The notes under the pieces are model-generated. The model was not told where the DNA came from, searched no databases, and worked only from the letters and a program-made list of their open reading frames with translations. Of a DNA stretch of 64,000 nt, positions 2,215-60,800 are shown piece after piece. Each line of letters starts with the position of its first letter. Positions within the stretch are counted from its first letter, which is position 1. Source of the stretch: Paraspadella gotoi. Its lineage: Eukaryota; Animalia; Chaetognatha. The translations under genes and the position numbers were made by a program. The stretch lies in contig CM119264.1 in assembly GCA_051294375.1 (NCBI GenBank), positions 2,435,631-2,499,630 of the forward strand, written 5' to 3'.

Positions 2215-8320
<6,106 letters not shown>

Positions 8321-11700: not shown

Positions 11701-11852
11701 TTTCAATAAATATAAATATAAATATAGATACTGAATAGTTTTTATGCCATTTAATAATATTAAAAGTAATGGGATTTATTACATTCTAGTCATTAGTTGA
11801 AATCAGGTCATAAATGGGAATCAAGTCTTCGAGTAAGAAAACTTTCAATGGT

Positions 11853-12076
11853 TAGATTCGGTAAGTATTTCTTTATGATGTTACCTGTGCAAAAGCAAAA
11901 TATTTTTTTTGCCAAATATTTCGACATGTATTTTCATATCATAAGCCACTGATGATGATATGAAAATATATGTCGAAATATTTGGCAAAACAATTATTTT
12001 ACTTTTGCACAGATAACCTCAAAGAAATACTTAGCGAATCTAATCACGCTTACTGTGCTTGTAATGACGTTACAAC
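11853..12076 (+). mobile_element. Fold-back insert with a minimal hammerhead ribozyme (Penelope-like element relic)
   Basis: About 90-bp inverted arms; 13-bp direct repeat AACTTTCAATGGT at 11840-11852 and 12077-12089; hammerhead at 11945-11986. Confidence 0.75.
11945..11986 (+). ncRNA. Minimal type I hammerhead ribozyme
   Basis: Stem I GCCA/TGGC, core CTGATGA, stem II GATAT/ATGTC, GAA, palindromic stem III ATAT, then the H nucleotide. Confidence 0.65.
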
Positions 12077-22200: not shown

Positions 22201-25200
22201 AATTGGATGGAACAAGGAAAAAATAGTAAAATCATTCAAACAAAACTATTCGTCATCAACAATAATTTCCTCTCAAATTGAATACAGGTGAAGACTTAGG
22301 GATAATTTATTTCAAGGTTTATTAAAAACGTACATACAAGTATTTTTTAAAATCATAAATAGGGCACAATTTATGGACAACCTGGATCAAGTTATGTGCT
22401 TTGTTAACAACCCTATATGGAATAGAACTTCGCCTCGACTCAATTGTTCTATTGGTGCATTATCCATAAAATTTAAACCAAAACTTATGTGCAGTGGAAC
22501 GCAAACATTTAAACTGGTATCATATAAATGATAAAAAAATAACAGCTGGGCATAATTAAATTTTTCAATTGATATGTGGTAACAGGGAATGTATCAAGTC
22601 TCGTGTGATTGTATTTCAAACCCAACGGTGGCTCCTAAACAGCTTCATTGGTATATTTTGTTCGGCCAAAAACAACTTGAAATAAACAAAATTGAAAACG
22701 TAACAAGAATGGACAGCAAAATACCCCACGGGTGAATTTAAAACTACTAAATCTTAAAAATTAATCATTTACATGGCTTTAAAAATCATATAAATTCTTC
22801 CCAATACAGTTTTCGATCAAGAATCGAGATACCGTCTTGCTTGGTAGAAGGTCATGGAAGAACTGTGGAAATATTCGTAAAAGTTTTACAAGGGGAAGAA
22901 GAAATTTGGAAATCAATAAAACTGATAGGCAACACAACCCAAACAACCCTGTAAGTAGTTTAAAAATTAAGATTTAGTCACTAATTTCTTCATATACATT
23001 ATACATAAATATATACATTTACACTTTATCTACTACATTTAATTATTAACTTACTATATTAATACAGTTTGATAACAGCCTTGGCTGCCACAACTGTCAC
23101 CATCCTCATATTATCGTCAATCGCATGCATTTTCTATCGATTCCACTATAATACCATAAGCAACTATAGACACGGGGAAAGCATTTCATCTTCAAACGTC
23201 GTTCAGGATGTCTACCACTTTGAAAGTAACACAGGCTGTCTACATTCAAAAACAGAAGAGCTCAATAATACAAAACCGACCTCAGGGAGGCGAGAAGTTT
23301 CCTTTAAAAACAATTTCTGAAAAAGACAATTGAATAAATAATTGTGATATTCGCCTAAAAAACTACTGGTTTCTGTGATAATTTCAGCTCAACTTAAGCT
23401 CATTTTAAATTTAGGTAAAATATAACAAAAACCCATAAAAATGCGTCGTCATAGAACGGAAAGAGAGCGAGCCGCACTCAATTTCTTAAAAAACATTTCC
23501 TTTGATGGCAATAGAAGCACAGACTTTCGTCAATTTAACTATTGCCAAGAAAAACGTTGCGATTGTCTGATATGTCAACACAGCTTAGTATCCAACGACA
23601 GATTTTATAACGACAGCCAAAAACCATCGTCGAAATATGAAATTGGCCTCAGTGACAAAACCAGCTCATCTACATCCGTTGAAACCATTCGAATAGATAC
23701 TTCAACGACGAATTACGAATTTAATTTAGAGAGAAGGTCAGTAATGAGATTAGTTATACAAATTTGATGGTCGTTGCTAGAATTAACTAACAAATATTTT
23801 TTCTTTGAAAAAAAGACTGTCCAATATCAAATCATTCAGATCAGACTCGGAGGAAAAAGAAAAACCGTCACAGAGGAACGTCTACTTCACGCCGTCTAGT
23901 GTGCTTACCAGCCAAGGGGTCAACAAGCGAATAATTTTCGTAGATGGTAAGATCAAGGAACATTTCCTTAATTAATTAACTTCGAGGGAAAAAGATATAA
24001 TACCGATCATCGCAGGACGACATCGAACGCCCATATCAGTCACGTCGGTTCTCCCTTGCCAAGAAATCCGGGCGACTAACCGAAAATCATCAGGGGACGA
24101 GTTGACCTCTGCCAAAAGTCCGCAACAGGGACGAAAAAAGGAAGTCACCGATCGAGAAGACGAGGACTCGATCCGAGATCAATCGTCCAACAGAAAACCA
24201 AAGCTGACGCTCGCGATAACGACGCCGTTGCGGGCGAAGACTTCAGGAGCGGCGGCCTCGACAACAAGCGCCGCGGTCAAAAAGACTGCGGCTCCGAAGC
24301 GCTCGAAAGCGATCGAACCGAAGCGGCGGGCGGTGCCGCTGATCAAAAGCCTGCTGCGCTCGCGCGGTCGCGGTGAGGCTTCGAGCGAAGTGTCTTTTCG
24401 AACTCTACTGGGAACGACGTCGACGTCGTCGGCCGCGACGACGGATAAATCAAAAACGGGATCCGAAAACGGCGCGACTGTTGGGGTCGAAGACGGAAGG
24501 AAAGACTCGGGAAGACCAGAGAGGCCCGTCGCCGATGAGTCGGAAAACAACGATCAACAACCAGAAGATCAAATCGACATCGGGATAGAAATTAATACCG
24601 GTAAGGAAATAAATATCTCAAGACTTAACTAAACCTGTCCGGCGCCTCGATTCAACGCCTTCGTTCGACAGATCTGAAAGAGAACCAAGCTCCCTACGAC
24701 CCTTGGACCCTCGACGATCCAGAATTGACGACGGGAAAATACAAGACGCTCATGACGCTGCCATCTTACGTCACATCCGTTCTTCACTACGCGAGCAGAG
24801 CCGATCTCAAGAGAGAATTGAACGATCAGTTTAAAAGAAGGTGATTTTGCTAATTAAATGATTACTTTTTTAAGCATTAAAGTTAAATCAACCTCAAGGT
24901 TTCCGGACATTGAGTTAACCCTCTCGAAACTGCGCAGCTTGAAACGAGAGATGAACCAAATCGGTGTCCGCTGCGATTTGGAAACAGCGACCGTCTCCGC
25001 GGCCTTTGTTTACTTTGAGAAACTCGTTCTTAAGAGATTCATCAACAAAAAAAATCGAAAGATCGTCGCGGGAAACTGCATCATCGTCGCGGCTAAATTG
25101 GACGACGTCAAAGGTTTAGGGTTGGGTGTTGTTGTTGTTGTTGTTTGAGGCACCAGCGGGTTTCGATTTAGTCTTACACTCATCTCAATGGCTGAGCAGT

Positions 25201-28200
25201 GAGCACGGAGCAGGCAAAATCAGTTCGTCACAACCGTGCGTCCCGGGTTCAACCCCTGGGTATACCCGTTCAGGCGAAAAAGTAAGGGGACAGGTTTAGA
25301 CATGCCAGTGACAGGAGCCGGTCCCTGAGGGTCCACGGCCCCTGCGAAAATTGGGGAGGTAATAATTCTAGAACATTTTTTATTTCAAAAACTTAAAAAG
25401 GCTAAGTCAGCGCGGCGAATGGGACACTCCTACCCCCCTAATTTTTTGTTTTTTTAAATTCAGGCGCCGAAATGGAGATTCTCATTTCCGACATAGAAGA
25501 GTCCTTGAGAATCGCGAAAAGAGATGTTCTCAAAATGGAAATCTTCGTTCTCGTCGCTCTAGAATTTTCTTTGAAGCTTCAAAGACACGAAGTCTTTCCG
25601 CATTATCAGCGATTAAAAACCGATTGTTATTAAAATTTGTTCGTTTTTTTCGTTTTTAACTTTTGGACAAATTACTTCCACATCATCGGACTTACCCGCG
25701 TTGCGGTTGTCGTCGCCGGCGGACAAAACGCGCTTCTTCGGTGGAACGGGTCGATGCGGAGATGGCGTCAGAGTCGGCAGTCTTATTAAATTAAAATAAA
25801 AGAATCACCATTAAGAATGTATTAAAAAGAGAAAGAACGCCAAAGGTCGAAGCGGTTAGATATTAAAGCTGGTTGGCAACGAACCTATTGGGGACGGACT
25901 TCCCTTCCCAGGCTCGATCGGGGCCGACGACTTCCAGAGTGCGAGAGAGATCAGAGGAATTGGGCGTCGGGACTGGTTGGTGCCGGGGTTTCTTTGGATG
26001 GTGACCTGAATGACGATACACAAATGGAATTAGGTCTTTCAAATCTCACATTTTTAGCGAGAAAGAGCGAGACTCACCTTCGCGCTTCCACTGCTCCTCG
26101 TCTGAGGTGGTGGACGCGTCGGAGACAATGGCGAGCTTCTTGGCGCTGGCGTGAAGACTTTCCGAGTCTGGTCAATGGAAAAAAAGATAATTAACGGTTT
26201 CATCGTGGCAACGACTGAATCATGGACAGAATCATGAAAAGGGTATCGGACAGAGTCATATTAATTTGTCGTCAAAAAAATGTTTTCAAGAATAAGTTTT
26301 TTTAAACAACAAAATATATTAATTTTTTTTTATCAAAGGATCTTAATCGACAAAATACGTTGTCAAGGACAAAGTCTCATAAGGGATAAGCCATATGGTC
26401 TAGCATCAAGCATAAGGACAAGGTTTAATGTCAAAGATAATCTTCTCCCTCACACCTTTACCGCTCATCGCCTGTCGCGCAGAAGGGACTGGGGCTTTCG
26501 ACGATGACACGGTCGACGGATGGGCGGGCTTTCCGTTGCGGCCTCGAGGTTTGAGCGCGGGGACAGGAGGTGCGACCGATGAAGGCGCCGACGGGACGGA
26601 CGCCGGCGCCGTGGAGAGACGCGATTGGCGGACGAGGAGATGAGAGACGACGGGACGGGGCGTGGAATTGGAGGAGGCGGCAGAGGGCGCGTGAGAGAAC
26701 TTGTCGAGGACGTCGTCACCCGTGCTCGGCGTCTCTCCGACCAGGTTTTCCCGAGAAGACGAGGACGACGACGGAGACGCCGTCGCGTCCAAGAGTTCGC
26801 CTACCGTTGTAGGGTGGGGGGGGGAGGGGGAAGATGGAGAGGGGGGAATGTTGAATAATACGTTATTTTCTTCATTGTTATTGTAGTGGACGACGCTCAT
26901 TGCACACAAGTCTCAGAAACTGCGGATCTGACTTTAGCGCCGCCAAACATTTTGAGGCAACTCATCGCCAACACGAAACCAATTAGGACGGGAGAAACTT
27001 CGTATTGCCTTCCGTTGTAATATCTGACGAGTCTCGGATAAGTGGAGACTCGGAGAGGTAAATTCACACTTCTTTTCGTTACATTGCCATCCCATACGTC
27101 ACACTCAAACGCCGTCACACCGCCCCCCTTCCACCCACCGGACGAAGAGGCCCGGATTTCCTTGAGTTTGAGGGCGCTGTGATGAACGAGGAGCGGCGTC
27201 GGAGTAAAAGCCAACGACGCCGGTTTGGTGTCACACGGCGCGGGTCCGTCGACGACGCCGCTGTCCGAAACGGAGCCGGCGTCGACGGCGTCGCGGTCAC
27301 GTCCGGCGTGAGACGCGGCGTCGCGAGTCAGACTGACCAACATGGTTGGATCTGCGGGGAGATAAAAGAGGGGAAAAAAACATTAACATAGCTGATGGGA
27401 TAATGAATTTTTAATCTAGTTTTACTGTTTCAAACCCATTCAATCAAACTTTTAGGGTCAAAAGTTTTAGTCAGCGATGGGATAAGTGCCTCACCGTTTG
27501 TACTAATTATCTATATTCACTATTCATCGATCTAATCATCTATCGTTTTACCACCAAGAGAGATCAAACTCCCGTCGTGAAATCAAAATAAGATCCAACT
27601 CTCACCCGCGTTATGACTAGTGACTCGCAAGACCCCAGAGAAATTGGGCTCCTGCTTCCGCTCTCTGACTTGAGCGGATTTGACGTAGAGAGACTTGGAT
27701 GCCTCGAGCAACTCCACTGCCGACTTCCCGCCCGTCGACGTTCGATTCCCGGGTTTCCCGCCGAAGATGCTCAATGAAAAACCGCCCGTCGAGGCTGAGA
27801 AGATAAGAGTGGGGAGGAGACGTGAGGAAAGGTGAGAAGTGAGACGGAAGTGAAAGGACTGAAATGCGAACAGTGCGGTTGAAAAGAAGTCGTCTAAAGT
27901 GGAAGATAAAACTATATTTATTTTGGGTTAAATGTTTTAATATTCATCCATAACTATTTTGTTTAGCAGTGTAAATAATTCATAAAAAAAAGTTTATTTT
28001 ACATGTTTCTAAAAGAATTTAAAAAAAAAACCAAACATTCTTCTGTATTTATCCAAAAATAGTTTTTAATCGGGCCTCAAACGACGAATCGCATCGGATC
28101 CCTTAATATCTAACCTCCTTCGGATCTCGAGTCCAAGACGCGGCTGGAAGATTTGCTCCTCAATCTCGCTCCCGAGGATTTTTGAGCTGCGGTAGTCCTT

Positions 28201-33514: not shown

Positions 33515-33741
33515 AAACTTTTTCATCTTCGACCACATGTCTTTTTCCCGGTGACGAATGACGACTTCAGCAACACGAAGATCGTTTAGACTTTCTTCAG
33601 TTCGACCCAAGTCTCTCAATCGACACCATCTTCGATTTGGAAAAAAAATAAAAATAAAATGAACAAATAAAACAAAGTCCCGATTAACATTTACAGATCA
33701 GGCGAACCCGAACGACGACCGAATTGATCCAAAACCCAAAC

Positions 33742-35316
33742 ATGAAGATCGAAACGGACAAAATCTTCCGCAATCTCAAACAGCTCATCCTCGGCGACGC
33801 CTTTTTCTTTTCCCTCACTCGACCCAGCGAGAAACAGATGCGCGCCCTCTTCGCCAGCGAGCGGCGTTGTCAAGGAATCCTTTACTGCGGCTTGACTCGT
33901 TCCGCCTGCTTTTTTCTCGCTTTTTTCTTCGCCGTTTCGGTCTTCGTTTTCCTAGGCTTTTTGCCCCGCAACGTCAGGCCGCTGATTCCGCCGCGCCCGG
34001 TGCCGCCGCCGCGAAATCTGACGGAAGAGCGGCGCCGTGCGAGGGCGAGGATCAAGACGTCAGACATCAACCCGACGATCGAGGGTCGATCCTTGGAAAA
34101 GAAACTGACAAATCCCTGTTGGTTCGAAGATGACGCCAGGTGGAGTCCGTACGAGGACAACCCATATGGCGTCCTCTCCAACTCAGCCAAGAAGACTTTC
34201 GATCGACTTCAACGTTCTTGGCGCGATCGTTTGCGGCGGCGAAGGCGCGAGGGAAGTGGAGGATCTCTCAGTCTCCGGCGACTACGATGCATGCCCTACT
34301 TTTACATCATCGGCATGCCAAAATGCGGGACGACGGATTTCTACTTTAAATTGGCTTCACACCCGCAAATCGTCACCGGCGTCATGAAGGAGCCACACTG
34401 GTGGACAAGGAAACGGTTCGGCGTCCTCCATCCTCGCGGCGTCTTCGATCGGGTCGTCGCCGCGACCGACGTTCGCCCGGCGACCTTCGCCGATTATCTG
34501 GACATCTACGACCCGGCTGCCGAGAAAATCCTGCAGGCATCGACGACCTCTTCCAGCGACGAGGCTCGGAGGATCAAGATCGTTGGTGATGCCTCAGTTT
34601 CCCTCATGTGGGACAACGACGGTTGGCTCAATTATCGTCAATGGCGCCTTGAAGGATCCTCGCCGCCTTCGCCCCTCATCGGCAGTCACGTGGCACGCCT
34701 AAATCCCGACGCCAGACTTATCGTGATGCTGCGCGATCCCGTCAGGCGTCTCTTCTCCGACTACCTCTATTTCCGCAACGGGGAAAACAAATCCGCGGAG
34801 ATTTTCCACGAGCGCGTCGTCGCCGCGATCGAGATCTTCGATAATTGCGCCAAAAATTATTCCCTCGAGTCTTGCGTCTACGCGCCAGAGATTAACGCCG
34901 CCGGCGCCGGTCGCATTTCGACGCCGGTTCGTCTGCGTCTCGGCGTCTATCACGTTTTTCTACGCGAATGGCTTCGGCGATTTCCGCGGCGCCGAATTCT
35001 TATTATGCGACTGGAAGACTACGCACTCGATGTGCGCGCGGCCACGGAGACGGCACGCCGGTTTCTCGGCTTAGAGGCGGACTTTGACAACAGCGACAGG
35101 GCGCCGGAAGAGATCGTGAATCGACGCTACGTCAACATCGGCCCCATGAAGACGGAGACGGCGGACGCATTGCGTAAATTTTACGCGCCGCACGTCGAGG
35201 CGCTGGCAGAACTATTGGGGGACGAGCGGTTCTTGTGGAAAGACATTGAAGAGAGAGAGGCTAAGATTTCGGAGTTGAGAAATAAATCAAAGGAAATTCG
35301 GTGGAAGCATCCTTGA
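33742..35316 (+). CDS. CHST15: Intronless carbohydrate sulfotransferase, CHST15 (GalNAc4S-6ST)-like
   Basis: Type II TM segment; NPCW; LRCMPYFYIIGMPKCGTTD (5'-PSB); KEPHWWTRKRFG; LRDPVRRLFSDYLYF (3'-PB). Confidence 0.88.
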   Translation: MKIETDKIFRNLKQLILGDAFFFSLTRPSEKQMRALFASERRCQGILYCGLTRSACFFLAFFFAVSVFVFLGFLPRNVRPLIPPRPVPPPRNLTEERRRARARIKTSDINPTIEGRSLEKKLTNPCWFEDDARWSPYEDNPYGVLSNSAKKTFDRLQRSWRDRLRRRRREGSGGSLSLRRLRCMPYFYIIGMPKCGTTDFYFKLASHPQIVTGVMKEPHWWTRKRFGVLHPRGVFDRVVAATDVRPATFADYLDIYDPAAEKILQASTTSSSDEARRIKIVGDASVSLMWDNDGWLNYRQWRLEGSSPPSPLIGSHVARLNPDARLIVMLRDPVRRLFSDYLYFRNGENKSAEIFHERVVAAIEIFDNCAKNYSLESCVYAPEINAAGAGRISTPVRLRLGVYHVFLREWLRRFPRRRILIMRLEDYALDVRAATETARRFLGLEADFDNSDRAPEEIVNRRYVNIGPMKTETADALRKFYAPHVEALAELLGDERFLWKDIEEREAKISELRNKSKEIRWKHP

Positions 35317-35761: not shown

Positions 35762-38700
35762 TCAGTTTTGACTCGAATCGCTTCGACTCTGCCAACTCTG
35801 CCACAGAGGTTTGTTCGCCGTGTTTTTCCGCGTCAATTTGTCGGTCGGGCGAAGCGGGCCCCATCCCGGCGCCGGACGAAGTAGCGTCCGAACGCGATGG
35901 AGGAACGGGCCGCGTTGACGGGCGAGTTGGACGAAGCCCACCACGGGGATGCAGGCCACCGACGTGAAGGAAAAGACGAACCCGAGTCGATCGATCAAAC
36001 CCGGGAAGGAGTAGTCGCGGTAGCTCGAGCCTTCGCGGGGAGGGGGTTGAATCGTTTCGTGAAAATAAGGATGGGTAGTTCAGGGTAGGGGAAAATAGAG
36101 ATGGGGGGGAATGGGGAATTCAGATATGAGGATGTGGGGAATGGAGATTTAAAAACGGGTAACTTAAAGAATGCTGATTGCTGATTTGAGGAATAAGGAA
36201 TGTGGTCTTCCTATAATGAAGGATTTGCGAAAGATTCAGGAAAATTTTATTAGAGGATTTGAGAAATAAAGAGTTGGCGAATTGTGTTTTGGAAGCGTAG
36301 ATTTGGAAAAGAAGTTAAGGATGGTCAGTAAAAATAAGGATACGATAACTAAAAGGATAAAGATAGACAAAGGTTTTTTGTTCTCAAGAAAAATATTGCT
36401 ATAGGGGAAAAGTCAAAGGAGGGATAAATAAAAAAAAAATAAATCGATAATTACATAGAAATAAAATGTCGATGTAATAATGAAAGAGCGAAAGAAAAAT
36501 AGGATGATTAGAAAAATAGGGAGAAAAAAAACGGGAAAAGAGAAAACGGAAAATGGCAATGGCGAGACCACGTGTGGGGGAAACGATCGAAGATTAAGTT
36601 ACGGCGTTTCGCTAGACACATTAACGAGAGCCTCTGTACTTAAGGTCTTGTAGTTGTACATTGTAAAAAAAAAGTAGCCGATATTTATGTTTCGTGACTC
36701 GTTACAAAACATCACAAAAATCGAAGAAAGAAAACTTTTGTTCGTTTTTTTCCCCCTCTGGCTCTTTTATGAATCTTTCTCCGATTCTTTCCTACTCTCC
36801 CTCCTTCGCCTCGATCGAAAAGTTCTCTCTTTCTCTTCCCCCCCCCCCATATGAGCTTCGCTCTTGCACTATTTCACTCTCTCGCTCTTTTTCCCGTCCT
36901 TCACCGAATCAAATTTGCTATCAGAGCGGAAGCCCATTTCACTTTTCAACCTCCAACCTTTCTCTCTCTTCCCACTATCCATATCAGACTTTCTCTTTTT
37001 CTCGTCCTTCTTTTCGTAATCAATCTAAATCAATCGCTCAGTTTTCACCCGGTCCCCGCGTCCCTCTCACAAATTTTGATGAATCGAGGTCCAATATGAC
37101 CAAAAATATTCCGTATGTAAATCAAAATGAATTTACTTTGACTAACGAATTCACTATTTGAAAAAATAAGTTGATTTAAACTTTGGGATTATCTCGATAG
37201 ATCATTCTTCCCTATCAAAAACGAAATTCCATCCGACGAGATATTCCCCCCCCCCGCTCTCTCCATATCTCCCTTTTCCACCCCCCCCCTCACCTTTGTG
37301 CTCTACGAAACTGAGAATGATGATGACGACGAGAATGAGCGGAGTGATGACGGCCCAAAAGGCGACCCAGACCGGCCAGGGACGGTAGCCGATCATGGAC
37401 TCGATGTCCGTCAAGAAGCGACGAGCGCCGTAAACGTAGCAGACGACGATACACTCGACGACGCAGATGATGAGGACGGACCAGGTGGCCACGTAGTTGT
37501 CCAGGAGCTGGGAAAGAAGGTGGCGGCGAGTGAGGGGGGCGAGGGAAAGATTTATTGGCGATGGTGAAGTAAATTGGTCGAAAAAAATTAAAAGCGATTA
37601 GACAGGAGACACGAGTCGGAATTTTTCCCCTGTAAAATTTTTAAACGACGTTTTCAAAGCGAAGATTCTTTTGAAATCACTAGAAACGGAGCAATGTCTC
37701 TTCTACTACCACACGACGATCAAATACCAATAACGTGAACGATGACCGACCTGCAGAATGTACATGCCGGCTCCGAGGCAGAGCGGCAGGCCGAGAAGAA
37801 AGCCTCCGACGCAGAGGGCGATGGTGACGAAGAGACGATAGCGATAGAGAAACTGACTCGAATCAGTCACCGTCGTCACGACGGTCGTCACCGTCGCGAT
37901 CTGAGTCCCGATGCCCAAAGCCAGGATCATCATGAAGAAAAGAAAGGACCTAAGGGCGAAGATATTGACCTCGAATTACAATCTATGGGTCTCGTCGGAC
38001 TCGAGTTTATCTTTATTTTAAAAACAAACTTGACTAGGGTAAGTTACTTACGGGAAACTCATAACTAACGTCTACTGAGCTATCCTTTTATTCGGACAAG
38101 AATTAAGATCACGAACAACGCAATTTCCTAAAAATATTTTCGAAGTTGTACATCAATATTTCAAATCGTTTTTTCCGATTTTTTTTTCTCTCTCTGTGTG
38201 AAAAAAGATTCTCCGTGAAAAGATTGGTGCAGATAACGATCGATTGCGCTCGCAAACAATGAGTTTAATCGCGATGTTTAAAATTAATATAATCATAAAG
38301 CTGATCGAAGAACCAATTTAAAACAGATTATGAAATGTAATGAGAGTAAAGGACTGTGGAGGGGCTTTTTGTTGTTGGCCAAGACTGTCAGAAAAGTCGT
38401 TTTGAAAAGTTTTTAGATTTTTTTTCTTTTTATAAACATTTCTTATTAGTAGTTAATTAATATTTTTTATTTTATATTTTGTGTAAAGGACTCTCTTTTC
38501 GTTGCGTTAAAATTAGGAGTAAACAAAAAACACGTTTGTTTTGGTTGTAACAACGGCAAAGTTTATTAGAAATAAACGGACATGTTTCGACTAAGTTGAT
38601 AGTCTTTTTTTTCTCCAAAAATTTTGTTCACGCCAAAATCTGTTTTGCGCTGATGAAGACTGTCAACTTAGTCGAAACATGTCCGTTTATTTCTAATAAA

Positions 38701-40855
38701 CTTTGCCGTTGTTACAACGAAAACAAACTTTATTTTTACTCTTTATTTTATATTTGGTCTTTTCCCCGAATACCAAAGTTTGACAAACTAATAGATCTAC
38801 TCGGATATCAGAACCCAACAGAAAAAACCACATTTCCTCAATTATCCCCTCATCCCCCTGGACCACCTGAGATACTTTCCCCCCCCCCTTCCTTGCTCTA
38901 CCACAACGGCGAAACGGGCATCGTGGTGACGGCTTCGGGATAAACGATGAAAGCGAGCCCAGCCCCTTGTGACGCCACTTCGTCCACCTCCACGCCCATC
39001 GCCTCCGCCATGACGCCCAAGACGGCGAAGATGACGAAACCGCAGAAGATGGCGGTGAAGGTGGTGATGCAGACGACCATGATGGAGTCGCGGACGACGT
39101 TGGTATTGTAGGCCTTGTAAGAGGCCAGAGTCAAGATGCCGCCCCAGCCGAGCGACAGGGAAAAGGCCACCTGGCAAAGTAGGCGTGGACTCGGCGCTCA
39201 TTTTTTCTTTCCAAGTTTTTTTTTGGGTTTTTTTTTAATTCATTGCTGGAATACCTGGACGGCCGCATCACCCCAAACGCTGGGATTTCCCAACATCGTC
39301 CAATTGGGAGTGATGAAGTAGTTAATGCCTGTCGGAGACAAAAATTTAACACTCGCACATAAAAAAAAAACAAATGAACATCAATAACTTTAAAAAAAAA
39401 AAGGGTAAATTGAAACTTAAGAACCACTATTGCTTACCCTTCATATGACCAGGAATGGTCAGGGCTCTGACAAGAAGAATGGTGAGTACGAGATAAGGAA
39501 ACAATGCCGTGAAGTAAGCCACCTGTGAAGTTTTGTGAAGGAGATTACACAATAGAAAACTAGAAAAATCATCAGAATAATCAAACATCATCGACCTTTC
39601 CCGACGATTTGGGCCCCCGAATGAGAACGAGGCAGGTGAGGACCCAAGCGACGAGCAGCGCCACCACCAGACGCCAGTTAATCGTCCCGAGGTCGTGAAA
39701 GCCGTCAGTGATGCTGACCACGTGATTGTGGAAGTACTCGTCGGCTGGGGAAATCTTGGCCGCGATGGCCGACGGGATCAGCGTCAGGTTGCACGCGTCG
39801 GGCGTCGAGTTGGAGAACGCGTCTGAAGTTATCTGGCGCCAAATTGGAAGGGATTCTTGCTTTAGGTTAAACATTAAAATACCTTATTGGCAAACGACTA
39901 TAAAACCAGTCAAAAACCCAGACCATGGAAAAGGTAATATTAAATATTATGAATGGAGGCCTTAGGCTTAGCACACCCTAGCTTATCCAAAGTCAGGAGG
40001 AAAGATATGAAGCTTATTTATTTAATGAATGTATATTATGTATAATTTTTATACTATTGGTTGTCAAAAATTATATTTAAAATAATCAGTTAAAAAAAAC
40101 CTCAGCGACAGCCACACATACTCAATATTTCCATTAAACACCGTAGAGTATCCATAAGTTTAACCAGATAATTCTGTGTCACCTGACAGTCTTCCGAGTT
40201 CCAGTGATTGCAGCAATGACTCCAGGGAAGAACGGAAGTGAAGGAACTGTAAAGAAAAACGAGCGCCCATCCGATGACCATGTTGTAATAAGGAGCTAGA
40301 AGGACGGAGACGATCATCATCCCGAAACCTACTCCTTTGAACAGAGGACACAGACGCCAAACCTGTCCAAGTATAGAGTAAGTTATTAGGGACACAAAAT
40401 CCATCTTTCTTCTTCAGCCCTTTTTCTTCGATTCCGAGTTTCCTCACCTTGATAAGACCCGAGGAGGAAAACTGACCCAGCGACATCTCTATGAGAAAGA
40501 GCGGAATCCCCGCCACCAGATTCATGGTGATGTAAGGAATGAGAAAGGCGCCGCCGCCGTTGCGATACACGAGGTAAGGAAAGCGCCAGAGGCTCCCCAG
40601 GCCCACGGCGAAGGAGAGGCAGGCCATGAGGAAATCGAGCTTACCATCCCACTGGTCGCGCTGCGGGACCTGGACCCCGGCCGAGGCGGGAGGCGGGAGG
40701 CGTGAGGAGAGGGGGGGGCGAGGGAAGAAAAAACTCACAGGATTTTTTAGATTTAGAATTTATAGTTCAAGTGAAACGCGAAGAGGGGAACTCACATTCT
40801 CGTCCAACTCCGTCTCTTCGTCGGGTTCTCGTTTCGTCTCCTTGGATTCCATCAT
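35762..40855 (-). CDS. SLC6 sodium:neurotransmitter symporter family, amino-acid branch (GlyT/PROT/NAT-like), about 10 exons
   Basis: [81 protein letters not shown], and a final exon ending ...PGWGP...SQN*. Confidence 0.92.
38517..38741 (+). mobile_element. Fold-back insert with a minimal hammerhead ribozyme (Penelope-like relic) in an SLC6 intron
   Basis: Inverted arms 38534-38606 and 38656-38728; AATAAA follows the ribozyme. Confidence 0.75.
38647..38686 (+). ncRNA. Minimal type I hammerhead ribozyme
   Basis: GCG-CTGATGA-A-GACT(gtcaactt)AGTC-GAA-ACATGT-C-CGT; GUC cleavage triplet ending at 38683; palindromic stem III. Confidence 0.8.
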
Positions 40856-48337: not shown

Positions 48338-51300
48338 TCACGTGTCGACGGAGACGTGATTGATGCCTTCGGGCGTGGCCACGTGCGTTCCGTTTCCCGT
48401 CGGCGTCGCCGATCCGGACGAGATGTTTCCTCCGCCGCCGCCTGCTCCAACGAAGAGCGGCGAGGGCGTGCTGCTGCTGCTGCCGCCGTCTGCGGAGGGG
48501 GATTCGACTCGAAATATAGGAGGCTCGCAGCGACGCAGCGCGCGGCCGCGAGACTCACCCGCGTTCCTGCTGCCGGATTTCGAAGGGTGATGGCCGCTTC
48601 CCGCCGCGGCGTGCGTCAACATGTGGGAGGTGAGGTACTTGGCCAAAGAGAAACTCTTTCCGCAATCCATACAAGTGTGAACCTACGAAGAGAAGGAAGA
48701 AATTTTAATTAATACTTTGCGGCGGTATATTCACACCGCCTCACGTCCTCCATCGTTCAGCCAATACCATTGGTTCAGAGGGGGGAACACACCATCCCAA
48801 GCGTTGTGTTCCGTCTACAGTCCAAACGACTTCCCTCTGCGTTGGCAAAGCGATACCGTCCTAGGGTAACCGCGCCAGTGACTGGAGGCGTCACTAAGGG
48901 TCGGAAGCCCCCAAAGCCAACATTGAGATGCTCCATCCCAATGGGCATCACAGGCAACCCGGCTGTTGCCATAAATCGTGGGCCCAACTATCAAACACGC
49001 AACCTTCTCAAGGTACGCTACGACAAACGCCTATGCCCTACTGATTTCCTAACACCTTCCCTCTGCGTTGGCAAAGCGAGACCGTCCTAGGGTAACTGCG
49101 CCAGTGACTGGAGGCGTCACTGAGGGTCGGAAGCCCACAAAAAGCCAACAGTGAGATGCCCCATCCCAATGGGCATCACAGGCAACCCGGCTGTTGCCAT
49201 AACTTCTAATTGCTTAATACCTACACTTTAAAAACACGACCTGTTGCGCATGCGCAGAATTCGAGACGTGATGCGCGGCTCCATGCGGCGCGTGCGGAGT
49301 TCCCCCGGAAGACGACGAGGCCGAGGGTGAAGGGATCCCGCCGTGAATCACCTGAGAGGGGAGCGAAAAAGTTCAAGATCTTGCCGTATTCACGATATCA
49401 ATTTATACTTTATTTGGCAAACGTGCGTAAATATAGGGGTTAAGAGTTATCGACCTAGTAGTACCTCATATTTTTGCAGTTGTTGCAAGTGCTGTTGCTG
49501 CACGGCTGCTGCGACTACGGCGGCGGCGGTTTTGGAGTGACTGACGGTGGAATTAGAGGTGGAGGCGTTGTTTAGCTGGTGGGCGGCGGGGGAGGCGCTT
49601 CCCGAGATGATGGCGTAATGGGAGGAAGAAGAAGAGGACGGGGGATGAAGCACGGATCGGTGCCGCAGCAAATCCGTCCGAGAGGCAAACGCGATGTTAC
49701 ACTCTTCGCAAATGTTTTTCTCCGCTGATAAAAAGATAAAGAGTTGAAAAATTGAGACAATTCTCTTGATAGGGAAGATATTTTAGGGACGGGTTTTGGT
49801 TGATGATACGTCACCAATCGCCAAGAATATCACTTCAACAACTGTTTTCGAAGTAATATTACCAATCCGAAAATCATCACTAATTCCTAACCCCCACTCC
49901 ACCCTGTGATCCTATTTAATCACCTTTGACGACGGTCCTCTCTATCGGACCGGCGGCGTTGAGCACCAAATTAGCGCCGCTCGTCGAGGGCGCCCCGATA
50001 GCGGCGTTCTGCTGCGCGTGGGTCGCCGCGTGCTTCTTCAGCGTCTCTTTGTGGGCGAAGGCGCGCCCGCACTCTTGGCACACGTGACTTCTTTCTCCGC
50101 TGTGGGTCAGCATGTGACGAGTGAGGTCTCCCTTTTGCGAGAAGCCCTGATATTAAGTGGATAGGAAGCACTTGATTCAGGGCTAGTTGTCTGGAAGAAA
50201 CTTTCGTGAAGATTCATCATCGGACTTTTATTCATTTGAATAAATTGACAAATAAAACATTTCACTACGTGTGTATTGATTTATTATTCATTGCCTTTCC
50301 TTTTCGGCTATCATGAGTTATTAATGATTATAGGAGAGGTGTTGGGTTACTGATCGGTTTTGTGGTTCTTGATCATTGTGTTTCTCTTCTGATCTATAAC
50401 AGTGTAGAATCCATGGTGCACTGTCAATGCACGGCCGCCCGTGATCAATCATTCACTGGTTGGAGCGAGACTTTCTGCCACGCCTTGAATCTCGGTGACA
50501 CTCCTTTGGTAACCCACACTCATCATTACCCGTTAGGGGGTACGCAGGATTCGCCCCTTAACCTAGTGTTTTATGATTTTTTGGCTAATGCGAGGGCCTA
50601 ACAGGGATCTAAAACTCAGGATGCGAAGAGAAAAAAATAATAAACATAAATAAAAAATAAGGCCATCTTGATAAAACCGTAATTCCACTTGAACATTTGC
50701 GCCGTTTTTTTAAAAAGCTTTTTGAGATTTAAAGATAATCCTTTTAAAATTTAATGAGCCTAAGTACAAATGGCATGACCTTACCACCTGTTTGGTTGAC
50801 ATCGTTCGAAAGGAAGAACAACCCAAAAAAAAAAAAAAAAAAAATCGTACGATGAAAAGAGGATATAAAAACTGAAGTTTGGCAGTAATAAAGCATTTTG
50901 AAAGAAAACCCGCTCAAAACAAATAATGTTAACTCAAAATCTGATCGTATTTTTTTGCTGCGTCGTCGCTTTAGAAAGAAGCGTTGATGCCTTAAAAATC
51001 CACGACAATGTCAGCGAGACAAAACCACAAAAACGGGGATATCTTGAGGTGACTTGACAGAAATATTGGCAAAGTCCAAGCTTTTTTTGAATAATATCGT
51101 TCCAGTTGTTTCATTGCGCATTGCCGACCTTAAAATGATCTTTTTTATTCCAAGTTCATATTTCCTGGAACGAAATGGTGCGGACCGGGTGACGTCGCCA
51201 AAAGCTACGACGACTTGGGCGAACTCGAGGAGATCGACAAGTGCTGCCGTCAACACGACAATTGCCCCAAAGACATCGAGGCTTTCGAATTAAAGTATCA

Positions 51301-53998: not shown

Positions 53999-56900
53999 AG
54001 GGCTTGTGAGAAGGCGGGAGATTGATCATTCAAAAGGGGAAAAATTACACCACAATCAAAATTTCTATTCTTGCTGTCTAATTGTTCCTAAAGCTCATCG
54101 ATTGTCTTTGTGAATATACTAAGTTTTAAACATAATTATTGTCCCGTTATAAATTATAAACATATTTTTCAGCAGTTGAAAATCATTTACATAATGATGT
54201 ACATAATCTACAACAAAATATTTTGGCCTCCGACCTGGAAGGCTCGTCAGGTTCCCGCCCACGATGGGATGAATCTGTGTGACTAGTCCCTGCAGCTGTT
54301 GTCCGTTGGCGCCGGGAGAGGCTTGCACGGAAATCGTCTGCGGCTGCTGCTGCTGCTGCGGGTGCGAGGCGCCGCCGCCCGGAAGGTAATTCTGCAGCAA
54401 CGCCTGCTGAATTCGCTCGACGCTTTCCTGCAGCAAACCCGTCGTCTCCATTCGGCCTTCGATCTGTTGCTTCAACCGTCGAAAAAGAAGATAACAAATA
54501 AACGACAAACATTTTTTAAAAGCTCAAAAATAAAATTGACTACACCCACCAAACTGTTGGGAATGCTTTGGTGATTCTCTTCGGACGTTTGATGCTCCGG
54601 CTGTTGATGCTGTTGTTGCTGCAAGTGTTGCAACTGTTGCGCTTGAACGGATATGGCGGTGGAGCGTTTCAAGGCGCGGCGCGGCCGGTTCTCCGTCGCC
54701 GCCGCCGCCGCCGCCGCCGCCGAGCCCGAGACGACCGTCGGCGATCGGGAATTCGTCATTGACTCGGGAAGATGAGTCGCTCGATCGAGAATCTATCAAC
54801 GTAAATATAAAACAAATTCATAAACTATGAAATTATAACGGAATATATAACTCAAATGACATTTAATTTTTTAACCTGCATCGACGGCTGGGGCGACGAA
54901 GCGTTGGAACTCGCCCTCCCTGAGTGGTGGGGGTGGTGATGATGATGATGGTGGTGACTGTTGACTTGCGGGGGTGACTGAACTACGAGCGGTAACACTC
55001 CGCCTCCCGAGGCGGAGGAGGGCGAAGGCCCGCCGACAGAGTGTGCGGGGGTGTTGTACTGGGCGGTAGAAGAGTGCGATCCCCCTGTGGCGTTGCCCGA
55101 GGAGTGACTCCCGTCCATGTGAATGCCGTGTAGACCGTGATGACCGTGGTAATGACTGAAGAGAGAAATTATTATAAAATGAAGATTGATTCATTCACCA
55201 AATTAGTACCCCGTCTAGACGGCGTCACTGACCTCGGAGGAGTCGACGCCGCCGGCGCGTGACTCGGCGTCAAATCTCCGGCGCGAATCACGTCTTCCGG
55301 ATGAAGTACTTGATTCCTGGCGCCGGGATTTCCCGAATCCGACTTGTGCGTGGAGGCGTGGGAGGGAGTAGGGGTAGAGACTGGGAGCGGCGCCAGAGCC
55401 AGCACCTCCGAAGGTCTGAGGTGGTGGTCGCCGTGGTGACTCGCCTGACGGATTCATATTTTGTGAAGATTAAATTATAACATTTTGGAAGACTAAGTTT
55501 CGCCCCAGATTTCAAGCGTTCCGTGCATCGTTGTGAATGGCCGCTTGAACCGCTTGGTCATTTCTCCGCTTGGGTTTTTTAAAGGCCTCTCTTAGCGATA
55601 ATCGGATTTTTATTTAAAACTTGTCATATGTCAATTGTGGCGAATCATAACTTCGCCTCCCGTATAGCTTGGTGAAACTCAGCTCGTCCCATTGGCTTGG
55701 ACAGCCGAGTACTCGTTCACCAACCGTGAGTTCCTGGTTCAAACCCCTCACGGTCACGCTGGTTAAAGTGTGATGGTGTCGGCATAAACACGCCAGTGAC
55801 ATGGGGTGGTCACTGCAGGTCCAAAGCCTTGAGCGCCAGCTGTCGGGAGATGCCTCACACCCCGGGCTTCACACATGTCTCCCCATTGCCATACAGTAAC
55901 CTTTAATATTAACTTCTCTCTTTTTCCTTGATCAGGTCTTCGATACGTAGCATTGCTAGGGAGGCCTTCAAAGCACACGCGTTAATGAGTTGGTAATTGC
56001 TTTCGTGACTGATTCGTGACGATAGAGCCAAACTTCGTCAATGGGGTGGGTCAGAAGTTTGATTTGGGAACCTTTCCAAATGAAACTTCATACATTTCTG
56101 AGAAAACTTTCAATGGAGCAAAATTTTCTAAAATGGCAAGAAGCATTAGTAATTAATTTTTTAATATTTATTTATAGATAGGAAATGTCAAAAATTTTTT
56201 TTTGAATTTTTATTTTTAAAAGCAGATTCAAATAGCTTATGAAAAGTTATCTACACAAAGTATAATTCTTTTTTCAATATTTTGATGATAAGTGGGTTTA
56301 AATTGAGAAAAACCTTAAAAAATCATCATCATCATCATCATCCGATGATTTTAGCAGTTTTTACTAATTTTTAGTAATAAAACATCAAAATTTTAAAAAG
56401 TTGTAATTATATTTTTTGCTTAACTTTTTAAGCTCTATCAGAATCAATTAAAAAACTTAAAATATCCAAAAAAAATTTTTGACATTATATAGCAATAAAA
56501 TAATATTAATTAGCAAATTACTCATGGTTCGGAACATTTTTGTAAAAAAATATTTTAACACAATAATTATACCAATAATGGATTAGTTTAATGCTGTTCC
56601 CATTAAAATTTGAATTTGGTCGGCTACCTCTAGTGACGATGACCCACAGATGTCGTGCCGCACTTACCACCGAAGCGGCCCGGTCGGCCGTGACCAAGTC
56701 GCGATGGAAATCGTGGACGGGAGAGAAAAGATGCGCCGCCGACTGAGACACCGTCCGCGCGTCGAGGCTGCGGATCTCCATTCGCTTTACGCGGGCGTCA
56801 AGTTCTGGAGGGAGGAGTGGGAGGTGAAGTGAATGAGAAGGGAAGAAAATGGAGGGAGAAAAAAGTGAGGAAAGGATAAAAAGAAGAATATAAGAAGAAT

Positions 56901-57867: not shown

Positions 57868-60800
57868 TCACTTTTTCTGTGATTTGTTCAACATCAGCTT
57901 TGATTTCTCCATGAACATGACCGAATTCCTCTTAAGTTCGGCGGCGTCGGAATTAACGGTGTCCAACCTGTTTTCCCTGACCTCGAGACCGGCTCTGGCC
58001 TGCGCCGCTTTGGCTGCCGTGCCGCTCGATCTGGCCGCGGCGCCGCTCGATCTGGCCGCGGCGCCGGTGGATTGCGGCGCTCCTCCGTTGGATTGCGCCG
58101 CGTTGCTCTTTTGGTTCATATCGTTCGGCTTGTTCTTCATGTAGTGGCTCGAGAATTCGAGTTCTTCCAATTGACGATTTTGTTCTCTTTGGTCTTTTGC
58201 CCTAAAAAATAAAACTCATTTTCTTTTTAAATACTAAATTCGATCAAAATCGGACAGCTTGGCTTTATATCTTTTAATTGTACTTTTTTTACTATTACAA
58301 CTATTATATTACATGATTACTATTATACTATTCAATTTTACTATCCCATAAAATCGCCTTCAATAATTAGCGGAAGCCGATCAAATTCAAATTTTAATGG
58401 GAACAGTATTAAACTAATCCATTATTGGTATTAATTATTGTGTTAAAATATTTTTTTGCAAAAATATTCCGAACCATGAGTAATTCGCTAATTAAAATTA
58501 TTGTATTGCTATATAATGTCAAAAATTTTTTTTGGATATTTTAAGTTTTTTTAATTTATTCTGATAAAGCTCAAAAAGTTAAGCAAAAAATGTAATTACA
58601 ACTTTTTGAAATTTTGACGTTTTATTACTGAAAATTAATAAAAACTGTTAAAATCATCAGATGATGACAATTTTTTAAAGGTTTTTCTCAATTTTAACCC
58701 ACTTATCAAAATATTGAAAAAAGAATTCTATTTTGTGTAGACTACTTTTCATAAGCTATCTGAATCTGCTTTTAAAAAGAAAATTTTTTTTGACATTTCT
58801 TATCTATAAATAGATATTAAAAAAATAATAACTAGTGCTTCTAGCAATTTTAAAAATTTTTGGTCCATTGAAATTTTTCACAGAAATGTATGAAGTTTCA
58901 TTTGGGAAGGTTCCCAAATCAAATTTCTGACCCACCCCATTGACAAAGATTGGCCCTAATAAGATTAATACAATCTCACACACTTTGTTTATCTAATGTA
59001 CGTATTGCAACTAAATTACTTTGAACGTTATTCTACAAAATAATTATTACATTGATTGCACTAATTACACACAACGACCGACAGAGAGTAATGAGTCGAC
59101 AGCCAAGATATCTCGACTTCTCAAGGCACTTTTCTCAACATCCAACCTCAAGAAACAATCAAACCAGTGGCTGCGCCAATAAATGTAAATCACTTTCAAG
59201 GGCTTAAACTGAACTGTTACTGGGGCACTAATATCATTTTATAAATTAAAACAATATTATTATGAAGTATAATTAGGAGTAGCCTAACTCAGTAAGGTGG
59301 GTAAGAAATTTGAATGAAGCACCTGCTCAAACAAAAATTTAAACATTTTTTAAAAAAATTGAATAGACAAAAAATTTTAATATTATTCTATACCCCACAT
59401 ATTAATTTTTTAATATTTATTTATAAATAGGAACGGTTAAAATTTTTTTAAAGATTTTTTTATTTTTAAGATAGGATTCATGTAGCTTGCAAAAAGTTGT
59501 GTGCACAAAGTATAATTCTTTTTTCGATATTTTGATCATAAGTGGGTGAAAAATGTGAAAAACTATTTATAATCATCATCATCATCATCTTTTGATAATT
59601 TTATTACTTTTTCTTAATTTTCACTAAGAAAAAATAAGAATCTTTGAAAGTTGTAGTTATATTTTTTATTTAACTTTTTATGCTCTATCAGAATCCATCA
59701 AAAAAGATAAGACTGATTAAATTTTTTTTTATTATTATATAGTATTATTGTAATTTTGATAGCAACAATAAAAGCATTAAAACCGAACTTTTCTAGTATA
59801 ATATATATGATTAAAATGCTTTTATAAAAACAGAATAAGAAATAGAATAAAATAAAATAAATAAGAAAAAAATACTTAATATTACAAAAATAATTTTTAA
59901 AAGATTTAAGATAATATAAATTTACAAATATAATTGCTATTTTGTTAAAGAGCAAGTGCAAGTGAAGATCTAGTGGGTGCAGCTAAAATTTATTTTAAAT
60001 GTTTGTCTTACAAAAAGCTTTTTTTAAAGCCTTCTAGTAGAATATGGTGAAAACACCAAAGAATTTTAATAAGATTATTCTTTTGTTTAAGAAAAAATAT
60101 TAAAACCTCTGGTAGATGTACTTAAATTAAATTTTATTGCTATTTTGTTTTTAAAAATACTTCTTCATTTAAACAGCCATCTGGTTTATTAAACCAAAAA
60201 CATATAAACATTTTCTATTTTGTATAAAGCAATGTAAGTAAAGATCTAGTGGGTGCAGACAGAAGAGCAAATTTCTATAGAACTTAAAGGGAAAATGCTC
60301 ATAGTAGAGAAAGTAAGAAACAAATCCTAGTAAGAGAAAAAAAGTTACAATAATAATTGAATAATTAAATATTTGTTATCACCTTTGTCATCGTGTCTTT
60401 ATTACCTTTGTCATTTAATAAAACTATTGTCAACCTAATATTGCCTTTACTTATTAATCACCCTAAACGATATTAACCAGGATTCACTAAACTAGCTTAA
60501 CCTGGTGAGGCTACACAGCACGATTTTCAGACAAGTTGGGTCCAGACTCGACATCGTTTTCTCGATACCTGACATCTTGAGTCTCTGTCTTTTCCCCTTT
60601 CGCTTTACTTTTTCTTTTTGAATTAAAGTCGACAGGTCGGCTACCCTCGCGTTCATTAATATTTCCCGCGTCATCTTTTGCCAAATTTTTGTTCGTTTCC
60701 AGTTTTCTGCGCCATCAAGGGGTCAAGAATAGGAATATGGATTTTTAAAAACATACATTATACTTAGTAACAGCAGAGATTAACAAAATAGCTTCACTAA

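Follow-up and report, generated by a model that had tools for sequence, protein, structure and literature searches.

The window analysed here, the whole stretch of 64,000 nucleotides from Paraspadella gotoi, carries the genes of an animal: a glutamate receptor, a transporter, and zinc-finger and cyclin-fold genes. The glutamate receptor (4361-7665) is of the kainate type and nearly intronless in an otherwise intron-rich window; its nearest listed relatives are 30-48% identical and are spread across many animal phyla. A sulfotransferase at 33688-35316 consists of a single exon. Two long palindromic elements (11849-12046 and 38508-38750, 86% and 81% self-complementary, respectively) are MITE-like. 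Three related AT-rich copies (56023-56632, 58368-58958 and 59296-59705), each partly palindromic and two of them forming an inverted pair of 610 bases (89%), probably represent a foldback or MITE family.

The repeat treated below lies at 55636-55893. An earlier note on this DNA had read it as a SINE with a tRNA-type promoter and a permuted twister ribozyme, starting at 55655. Its family is referred to here as family A, and that of its relative at 48.7-49.2 kb as family B. The unit and its ends are:

55632..55635, plus strand: left target duplication CAAT, three of its four letters identical to the right flank
55636..55893, plus strand: unit of the family A repeat (258 bp), taken to be a solo LTR (depth step, loose contig ends)
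55636..55643, plus strand: left terminus TGTGGCGA, an imperfect inverted repeat with the right end (six of eight bases complementary, the other two G-U)
55886..55893, plus strand: right terminus TTGCCATA, with three occurrences in the window, each ending one of these repeats
55894..55897, plus strand: right target duplication CAGT

Public contigs of four coded runs from three studies were aligned to the window, the best-matching run perhaps being the source of the window itself, and the ends of the repeat were taken from three DNA runs belonging to two of the studies. The fourth run, X9, which is RNA only by guess, has a depth ratio like that of DNA and was excluded from expression. In the three DNA runs the summed depth over 55650-55869 is about 3,000, 3,400 and 2,300 times that of the flank, a measure of abundance only and not of copy number. 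Among the loose contig ends listed, the best supported fall at 55634-55636 and 55893-55894, where the contigs run out into unrelated, AT-rich flanks; in the same runs 40-48 contigs come loose before 55636 and 64-82 behind 55893. These sharp ends fix the unit as 55636-55893, so that it starts upstream of the position given in the earlier note.

The termini are TG...TA with an inverted repeat of eight bases, imperfect, and the sharp end at 55893 has neither a poly-A nor a simple-repeat tail. The consensus of the flanks is mirror-symmetric in both families (ATAN before the repeat, NTAT behind it), as would fit a four-base duplication at a palindromic target. Such a duplication was seen directly in two copies, one of them with a mismatch, the contigs leaving the two flanks of a copy unpaired. 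Six places are listed at which the family A copy in the window departs from the majority, and at one more it departs from about half of the depth; in run X1 there are 10 places over 3%, seven of which are listed.

Relatives in the window and promoter-like boxes

The window holds two relatives of the repeat, and family A itself has two boxes resembling those of tRNA genes:

25179..25358, plus strand: truncated third relative; A box, B box as part of a T-arm, twister decayed (nhmmer E 4e-8, two-copy profile)
48714..48717, plus strand: family B left target duplication ACTT, identical to 49202-49205
48718..48973, plus strand: family B first LTR, 256 bp, no B box; conserved G missing from its twister at 48854
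48974..49046, plus strand: family B internal part, a degenerate primer-binding site and then one unit of a 38-base tandem repeat (depth, majority letters, back-joints)
49047..49201, plus strand: 3' part of the family B second LTR, 93% identical to 48821-48974; twister with G49080 kept and P4 weakened
49202..49205, plus strand: family B right target duplication ACTT
55693..55704, plus strand: A-box-like motif (TRGCY) by sequence, 43 bases before the B box
55736..55746, plus strand: B box GGTTCAAACCC, an exact match

The kinship between the repeat and the element at 48.7-49.2 kb, already asserted in the earlier note, extends over the whole unit: 48718-48973 is homologous to all of 55636-55893 (58% identity, z 11), and the likeness persists on both sides of the ribozyme (z 6.6 before it, z 4.7 after it). 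The 3' tail said to be shared is real insofar as both end in TTGCCATA, but it is the end of repeats that are homologous over their whole length. Nor is the element the tandem form it had been taken for. It is not arranged head to tail; behind a unit of 256 bases come 73 bases of other sequence and then a second copy of the unit's last 155 bases, with ACTT on both sides of the whole, which makes two LTRs around an internal part, the second LTR being partial. In the contigs, ends as sharp as those of family A and of the same pattern lie at 48717-48721, 48974 and 49201-49202, and other family B copies begin with TGT. The 73 internal bases, which are all the internal sequence of family B that was seen, reach a depth of about 0.36-0.69 million against 218-302 in the flanks (run X1). 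Majority letters of family B place TGG two bases behind the LTR, in the manner of a primer-binding site; by eye, 11 of 13 positions agree with the tRNA-Trp site of Gypsy-32_NVi and Helenus-2_SyJa as far as these are given in the accessible source, only the first six being contiguous, and the comparison is with these sites and not with the host's own tRNAs. The stretch 49012-49048 is one unit of a 38-base tandem repeat, and back-joints to 49012 show that other copies carry more units; both the loose ends and the back-joints of family B are among the best-supported rows listed. Neither a polypurine tract nor an intact two-LTR copy nor a partner element was seen in the window and contigs. As judged from its sequence, the locus is an LTR, a primer site, a deleted inside and a partial LTR.

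The third relative has an A-to-B spacing of 57 bases and an intact T-arm of 5 bp, and lacks the conserved G. A 24-base match at 36553-36576 (E 0.22) was considered as a further relative and rejected, as the profile fails to recover it. The primer site and internal part are found in family B only, and the B box in family A and the third copy only, so that no family has both; family B lacks a B box, has a C-A mismatch in its P2, and equals or exceeds family A in abundance. The two loci with well-kept twisters run opposite to the minus-strand zinc-finger gene region, and the third relative lies in the sense of the plus-strand cyclin-fold gene, just behind the exon 24858-25117, and is the one without the conserved G. 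This orientation is what an active ribozyme would leave, although three loci prove nothing.

Are the boxes of family A a promoter? The B box is exact, yet such matches are not above chance by themselves: the window has three against 1.15 expected, and 11 of 100 shuffles reach three. In two of the three cases a twister-like motif follows after 32-34 bases. The A box is weak and shares bases with what we take to be a reversed CCAAT motif; 55693-55704 may therefore be a Pol II element instead. ARAGORN and Rfam both called no tRNA in the window. The boxes stand some 50 bases inside the fixed 5' end of the family, and the repeat lacks an internal T4 stop, an absence that is not rare by chance (P 0.56). 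Of the Pol III boxes described in the earlier note, then, the B box stands as an exact match, and the A box is weak, with no tRNA called and no excess of matches. On these motifs, transcription of family A by Pol III is plausible, at odds a little better than even.

The twister and its covariation

The motif between the B box and the 3' end of the repeat has the following parts:

55758..55840, plus strand: type-P5 twister ribozyme motif (descriptor, pair inspection, Rfam consensus)
55758-55763/55835-55840, plus strand: P5, 6 bp, enclosing the motif
55768-55771/55788-55791, plus strand: P2, GTGT/ACAC, four of four pairs
55772-55773, plus strand: conserved G55772, then A55773
within the motif, plus strand: T1 pseudoknot TGG/CCA, three of three pairs
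55777..55784, plus strand: P1 segment, 8 bases, internal to the motif
55785-55787, plus strand: U-A-A site (TAA), predicted cut between 55785 and 55786
within the motif, plus strand: T2 pseudoknot GC/GC, two of two pairs
within the motif, plus strand: P3, 6 bp
within the motif, plus strand: P4, 4 bp (four of four pairs), with loop UCCAAAGC

Pairing is standard throughout all helices and both pseudoknots, and with the U-A-A site, the G-A and the L4 core GGTCCAAAGCC all the core bases are there. The numbering of the parts, which we take to be right, agrees with the Rfam consensus line. From 5' to 3' the order is P5, P2, G-A, T1, P1, UAA, P2, T2, P3, P4, P5. The chain is thus open at P5, with P1 closed, and by this order the motif is a type-P5 permutation (type names as used in the accessible text of PMC6765202). 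The earlier note had rightly recognised a permuted P5-type twister at this position and had placed the cut where U55785-A55786-A is indeed present. The motif is predicted to self-cleave the RNA of the element at U55785/A55786 and is quite probably active in the family.

A descriptor derived from the twister consensus matches the window only at 55768 and 49076, with no match in 100 dinucleotide shuffles, a lenient control because the descriptor was composed after the sequence had been seen. A stricter pattern with pairing rules is passed by both window copies, weakly by one of 89 metagenome loci, and by none of at least 120 viral loci. Generic short-P1 patterns gave three loose passes among these viral loci, none of them with a short P1, and one weak pass among the 89 metagenome loci, none of which is similar to the element by blastn. 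The sole weak passer of the short-P1 pairing rules in the metagenome set, L127:697 (minus strand of the locus), is probably due to chance. A family-specific pattern had no match in the metagenome contigs.

At the gathering score Rfam has no match in the whole window. The earlier note had proposed the Rfam twister-P5 model as a check; among the matches listed for narrowed scans (one lower clan match per scan being left out) there is only twister-P1, well below threshold at 17-22 bits against a cut-off of 67 (17.1 against 67.2, E 0.45, at 55758-55840), and twister-P5 is absent. A scan of 25150-25400 gave nothing relevant. P5-type twisters with a palindromic P1 score below the Rfam thresholds, and more of them may therefore hide in repeat libraries. 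Folding predictions disfavour the motif: nested folding, which leaves pseudoknots unscored, gives P2 and P4 a probability below 0.1 and the full repeat competing hairpins, and forcing the ribozyme fold costs 10-18 kcal/mol, pseudoknot credit excluded. An upstream hairpin (55753-55773) and a downstream antisense stretch (55850-55860) can pair with the P2/P1 side of the twister and may keep the ribozyme off in some contexts.

Covariation was scored on 25 pairs set beforehand from the twister consensus, the null being the same number of changes placed at random. Relative to the twister at 55758, the 48.8 kb copy keeps 23 of the 25 pairs (five changes compensatory, two one-sided, two broken) and the 49067 copy keeps 22 (four, three and three). 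For pairs kept the null gives P 3e-5 and 9e-5, respectively, and for compensatory changes P 0.0006 and 0.015. T1 and P2 covary: both variable pairs of T1 switch jointly between the families, and P2 shows one compensatory change and one broken pair. Two P4 pairs are also broken in the 49067 copy. The claim that P2, the pseudoknot, P5 and P1 all change in a compensatory way holds for the four or five compensatory changes and the flips in T1; not all changes are of this kind, because of the broken pair in P2 and the two in P4 of the 49067 copy. Likewise the covariation, called strong in the earlier note, clears the null at the probabilities given and is a single comparison of two lineages, not a deep alignment.

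All three LTR copies, and also the truncated relative, have the motif in the same position. Of the four copies in the window, three have damage to the core or P4, but none of the seven common differences listed for family A falls at a core base, and in family B 94% of the depth has the conserved G at the place of 48854 (run X1), the common variants listed inside the motif lying in the P3 loop or the linker or being private to the window copy. Two families only 58% alike have kept the core and both pseudoknots through compensatory changes; on these comparisons, the RNA-level structure of the twister is under selection.

The P1 sequences of the two families are TGTCGGCA and TCCTAGGG. P1 makes two pairs as a hairpin and eight of eight as a dimer, and is fully self-complementary in both families despite the difference in sequence; the dimer cofold of 55777-55784 has -9.5 kcal/mol, without a monomer fold. 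The inner palindrome has a chance of about 14% per family. A dimer through P1 is a tentative idea, drawn by analogy and somewhat short of even odds, because P1 can be dispensable, as it is in some twisters (PMC6154101, accessible part), while palindromic stems drive the dimer cleavage of Penelope-type hammerheads (PMC6765202, PMC7761336 and bioRxiv 10.64898/2026.07.22.740005, each in the part available). If the idea is true, this P5-type twister, with its palindromic P1 completing it in the dimer, would be an example of a dimeric twister found in nature.

Element class and proposed replication

What kind of element is this? The order of parts at 48.7-49.2 kb, with LTR, primer site, deleted inside and partial LTR, makes the repeat at 55636-55893 most likely a solo LTR, that of an abundant and likely non-coding animal LTR retrotransposon; that the families are LTR elements at all we hold to be very probable. 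On the sequence evidence, what the earlier note called a SINE-like form is a solo LTR, and its tandem form is a two-LTR copy with a deletion. The fixed ends without a tail, the TG terminal inverted repeat, the four-base duplication and the primer-site-like start of the internal part argue for insertion of an LTR element by integrase and against the LINE-driven SINE of the earlier note.

Our main reading, to which we give a probability of about 0.6, is a solo LTR whose twister cuts the RNA once per LTR, with formation of a circle and copying by a Gypsy-type partner. What we infer here is cleavage, circles, Pol III transcription, dimerisation through P1 and a partner element, and the steps would be as follows. 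The transcript would begin upstream of the ribozyme; for family A, Pol III acting through the tRNA-like boxes is the probable polymerase. The twister would then cut at U55785/A55786 and at the corresponding site of the second LTR; with the same ribozyme in both LTRs, the excised RNA would contain one LTR's worth of sequence and no terminal redundancy. A host ligase would join the 5'-OH to the cyclic phosphate to give a circle, a tRNA would prime behind the LTR, and copying round the circle by the partner would restore both LTRs. Integrase would insert the DNA with its four-base duplication, and solo LTRs would arise from LTR-LTR recombination or from short copies. More speculatively, through the self-complementary P1 two LTR ribozymes of one transcript could complete each other, in which case cutting would be favoured in the full-length RNA and disfavoured in a circle with one ribozyme. 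Circles are somewhat probable, by analogy, because plant LTR retrozymes solve the loss of the terminal repeat by circularisation and priming at the primer site; a Gypsy-type partner is proposed because the 4-bp duplications and primer sites of animal Helenus have been taken to point to one. If true, the scheme would offer a way for an LTR element whose tRNA-type promoter is internal to restore its ends. A wider version, in which animal LTR retrozymes are Pol III TRIMs with a swappable ribozyme (a permuted twister here, a type III hammerhead in wasp Helenus-2), circles and mutually activating P1 stems, is rather doubtful.

Other readings account for part of the data. Ginger-like transposons start with TGT and make four-base duplications, and a small DNA transposon of this sort carrying a ribozyme would explain the TGT start, the duplication and the short terminal inverted repeat. 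That inverted repeat, however, has only eight bases and is imperfect, two copies of the unit in the same orientation enclose an abundant internal part with a TGG start, and an RNA-level structure is under selection, so that we consider such a transposon very improbable. About as remote is a twister-bearing SINE with a tRNA head, which a LINE mobilises by way of the shared 3' tail and which has a tandem form. In its favour, the ribozyme is preceded by a B box and a weak A box, and the schistosome Sm-alpha SINE, in the sources available, combines a Pol III promoter with a hammerhead; but the fixed 5' end some 50 bases upstream of the tRNA-like part and the fixed, tail-less 3' end do not suit it, nor do the terminal inverted repeat and the primer-site-like internal part. 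Where a SINE would have a tail and a long duplication of variable length, the repeat has a sharp end at 55893 and a duplication of four bases. A bipartite SINE derived from an RTE element was dropped once the ends had been mapped.

Two alternatives grant the LTR and differ in the role of the ribozyme. The most serious competitor, although unlikely, is that the solo LTRs belong to a Gypsy-type element that is long or autonomous, or to a TRIM copied by ordinary strand transfer, and that the twister only trims one RNA end or is used without circles. The 73 internal bases seen leave room for a longer and coding internal part; family B has CCAAT-like motifs and no B box; and Cassandra-type TRIMs, in the literature accessible to us, form a short terminal repeat without any ribozyme. 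Against this, a ribozyme active in both identical LTRs would remove the redundancy that strand transfer needs (our reasoning, found also in the available text of PMC4918200), and the tRNA-like class of LTRs is short and non-coding in all published families according to the accessible part of PMC10886601. The twister could also be a passenger, captured in an ancestral LTR with a tRNA-headed SINE or the 5' end of an RTE element and no longer used. Twisters are known at RTE 5' ends (PMC8501958, in part), Helenus is thought to have been born by SINE insertion into an LTR (PMC10886601, in part), and the damage in three of the four window copies and the folding predictions point the same way. Yet the core and both pseudoknots have come through 58% divergence by compensatory changes, and the common variants listed for family B inside the motif fall in the P3 loop or the linker or belong to the window copy alone, which makes a passenger improbable.

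Known systems with LTRs or ribozymes

The preferred reading, an LTR cut by its own twister and copied by way of a circle, joins two known kinds of element: Helenus is the closest by anatomy and the plant LTR retrozyme the closest by mechanism, the circle route having so far been shown for plant hammerhead elements. Helenus TRIMs, or TRIMp3, have LTRs of 100-320 bp with tRNA-like A and B boxes, a TGG primer site that follows the LTR at 0-3 bases, numerous solo LTRs and, in animals, a 4-bp duplication and Gypsy-type primer sites (Kojima 2024, PMC10886601, as described in the accessible parts). The window repeats share with them the two direct LTRs around an internal part (48718-49201, the second cut short) beside a solo copy (55636-55893), the 4-bp duplications ACTT/ACTT and CAAT/CAGT, and the TRGCY and GGTTC boxes, which are present in family A and the third copy and absent from family B. 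Helenus-2_SyJa and -2_SyUm likewise have a TGTGG start, and their primer site is one for tRNA-Trp (PMC10886601, available part). Helenus has TG...CA ends where the window has TG...TA, although a few of the published Helenus LTRs seen there also end in TA; the tRNA-like part in the window is also more decayed and lies upstream of a twister, and there is a sister family without a B box.

Plant LTR retrozymes (Cervera et al. 2016, PMC4918200, as far as accessible) have a ribozyme in each LTR, a 4-bp duplication, a primer site, solo LTRs and a proposed Gypsy-type partner, and their circles, which lack an R domain, have been shown. They differ in having a type III hammerhead, a tRNA-Met primer and no tRNA-type promoter, and for the window element circles are only proposed. 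The window LTR would work like a retrozyme, yet we do not file it as a member because its ribozyme is a twister and not a type III hammerhead. The twister variants of Perere-3, an RTE element, have the same core and pseudoknots and a short P1 in an animal retroelement; that element has no LTRs and carries a ribozyme of the P1 type at its 5' end, adjoining the duplication (Liu et al. 2021, PMC8501958, part available), whereas the window twister is internal to the LTR, open at P5, and has P1 closed by an 8-base palindrome. Animal non-LTR retrozymes, Penelope-like hammerheads and Sm-alpha are likewise small repeats with a ribozyme and a palindromic short stem, Sm-alpha also having a Pol III promoter before its ribozyme; they differ in their type I hammerheads and head-to-tail arrays, and have no LTR, primer site or 4-bp duplication (PMC7761336, PMC6765202 and bioRxiv 10.64898/2026.07.22.740005, in the parts available).

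In the literature searched (subscription papers, bioRxiv supplements and Repbase notes lie outside it) no LTR is described as carrying a twister and no animal TRIM as carrying a ribozyme, and in its accessible part a 2026 preprint describes LTR retrozymes as mainly of plants and hammerhead-based, and animal retrozymes as non-LTR. If true, a twister selected inside an animal LTR extends LTR retrozymes to a second kingdom and a second ribozyme, and gives eukaryotic twisters a second defined job beside the processing of RTE 5' ends. The main text of the Helenus paper, as available, mentions no ribozyme; six twister-core words have no match in its supplement, where line breaks may hide some, and by eye no twister core is seen in the animal Helenus consensus sequences given there (PMC10886601). 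The same supplement does hold ribozymes of another kind. By eye, Helenus-2_SyJa-LTR and Helenus-2_SyUm-LTR, both from wasps (PMC10886601, DataS1), have a complete type III hammerhead behind the B box: stem I has 7 bp, both core strands and a GUC site are present, and loops I and II are complementary over 12 bases. These hammerheads, unmentioned in the accessible text of that paper, sit at the same place in the LTR as the window twister, and with two such wasp LTRs at hand, ribozyme-bearing animal LTRs may recur.
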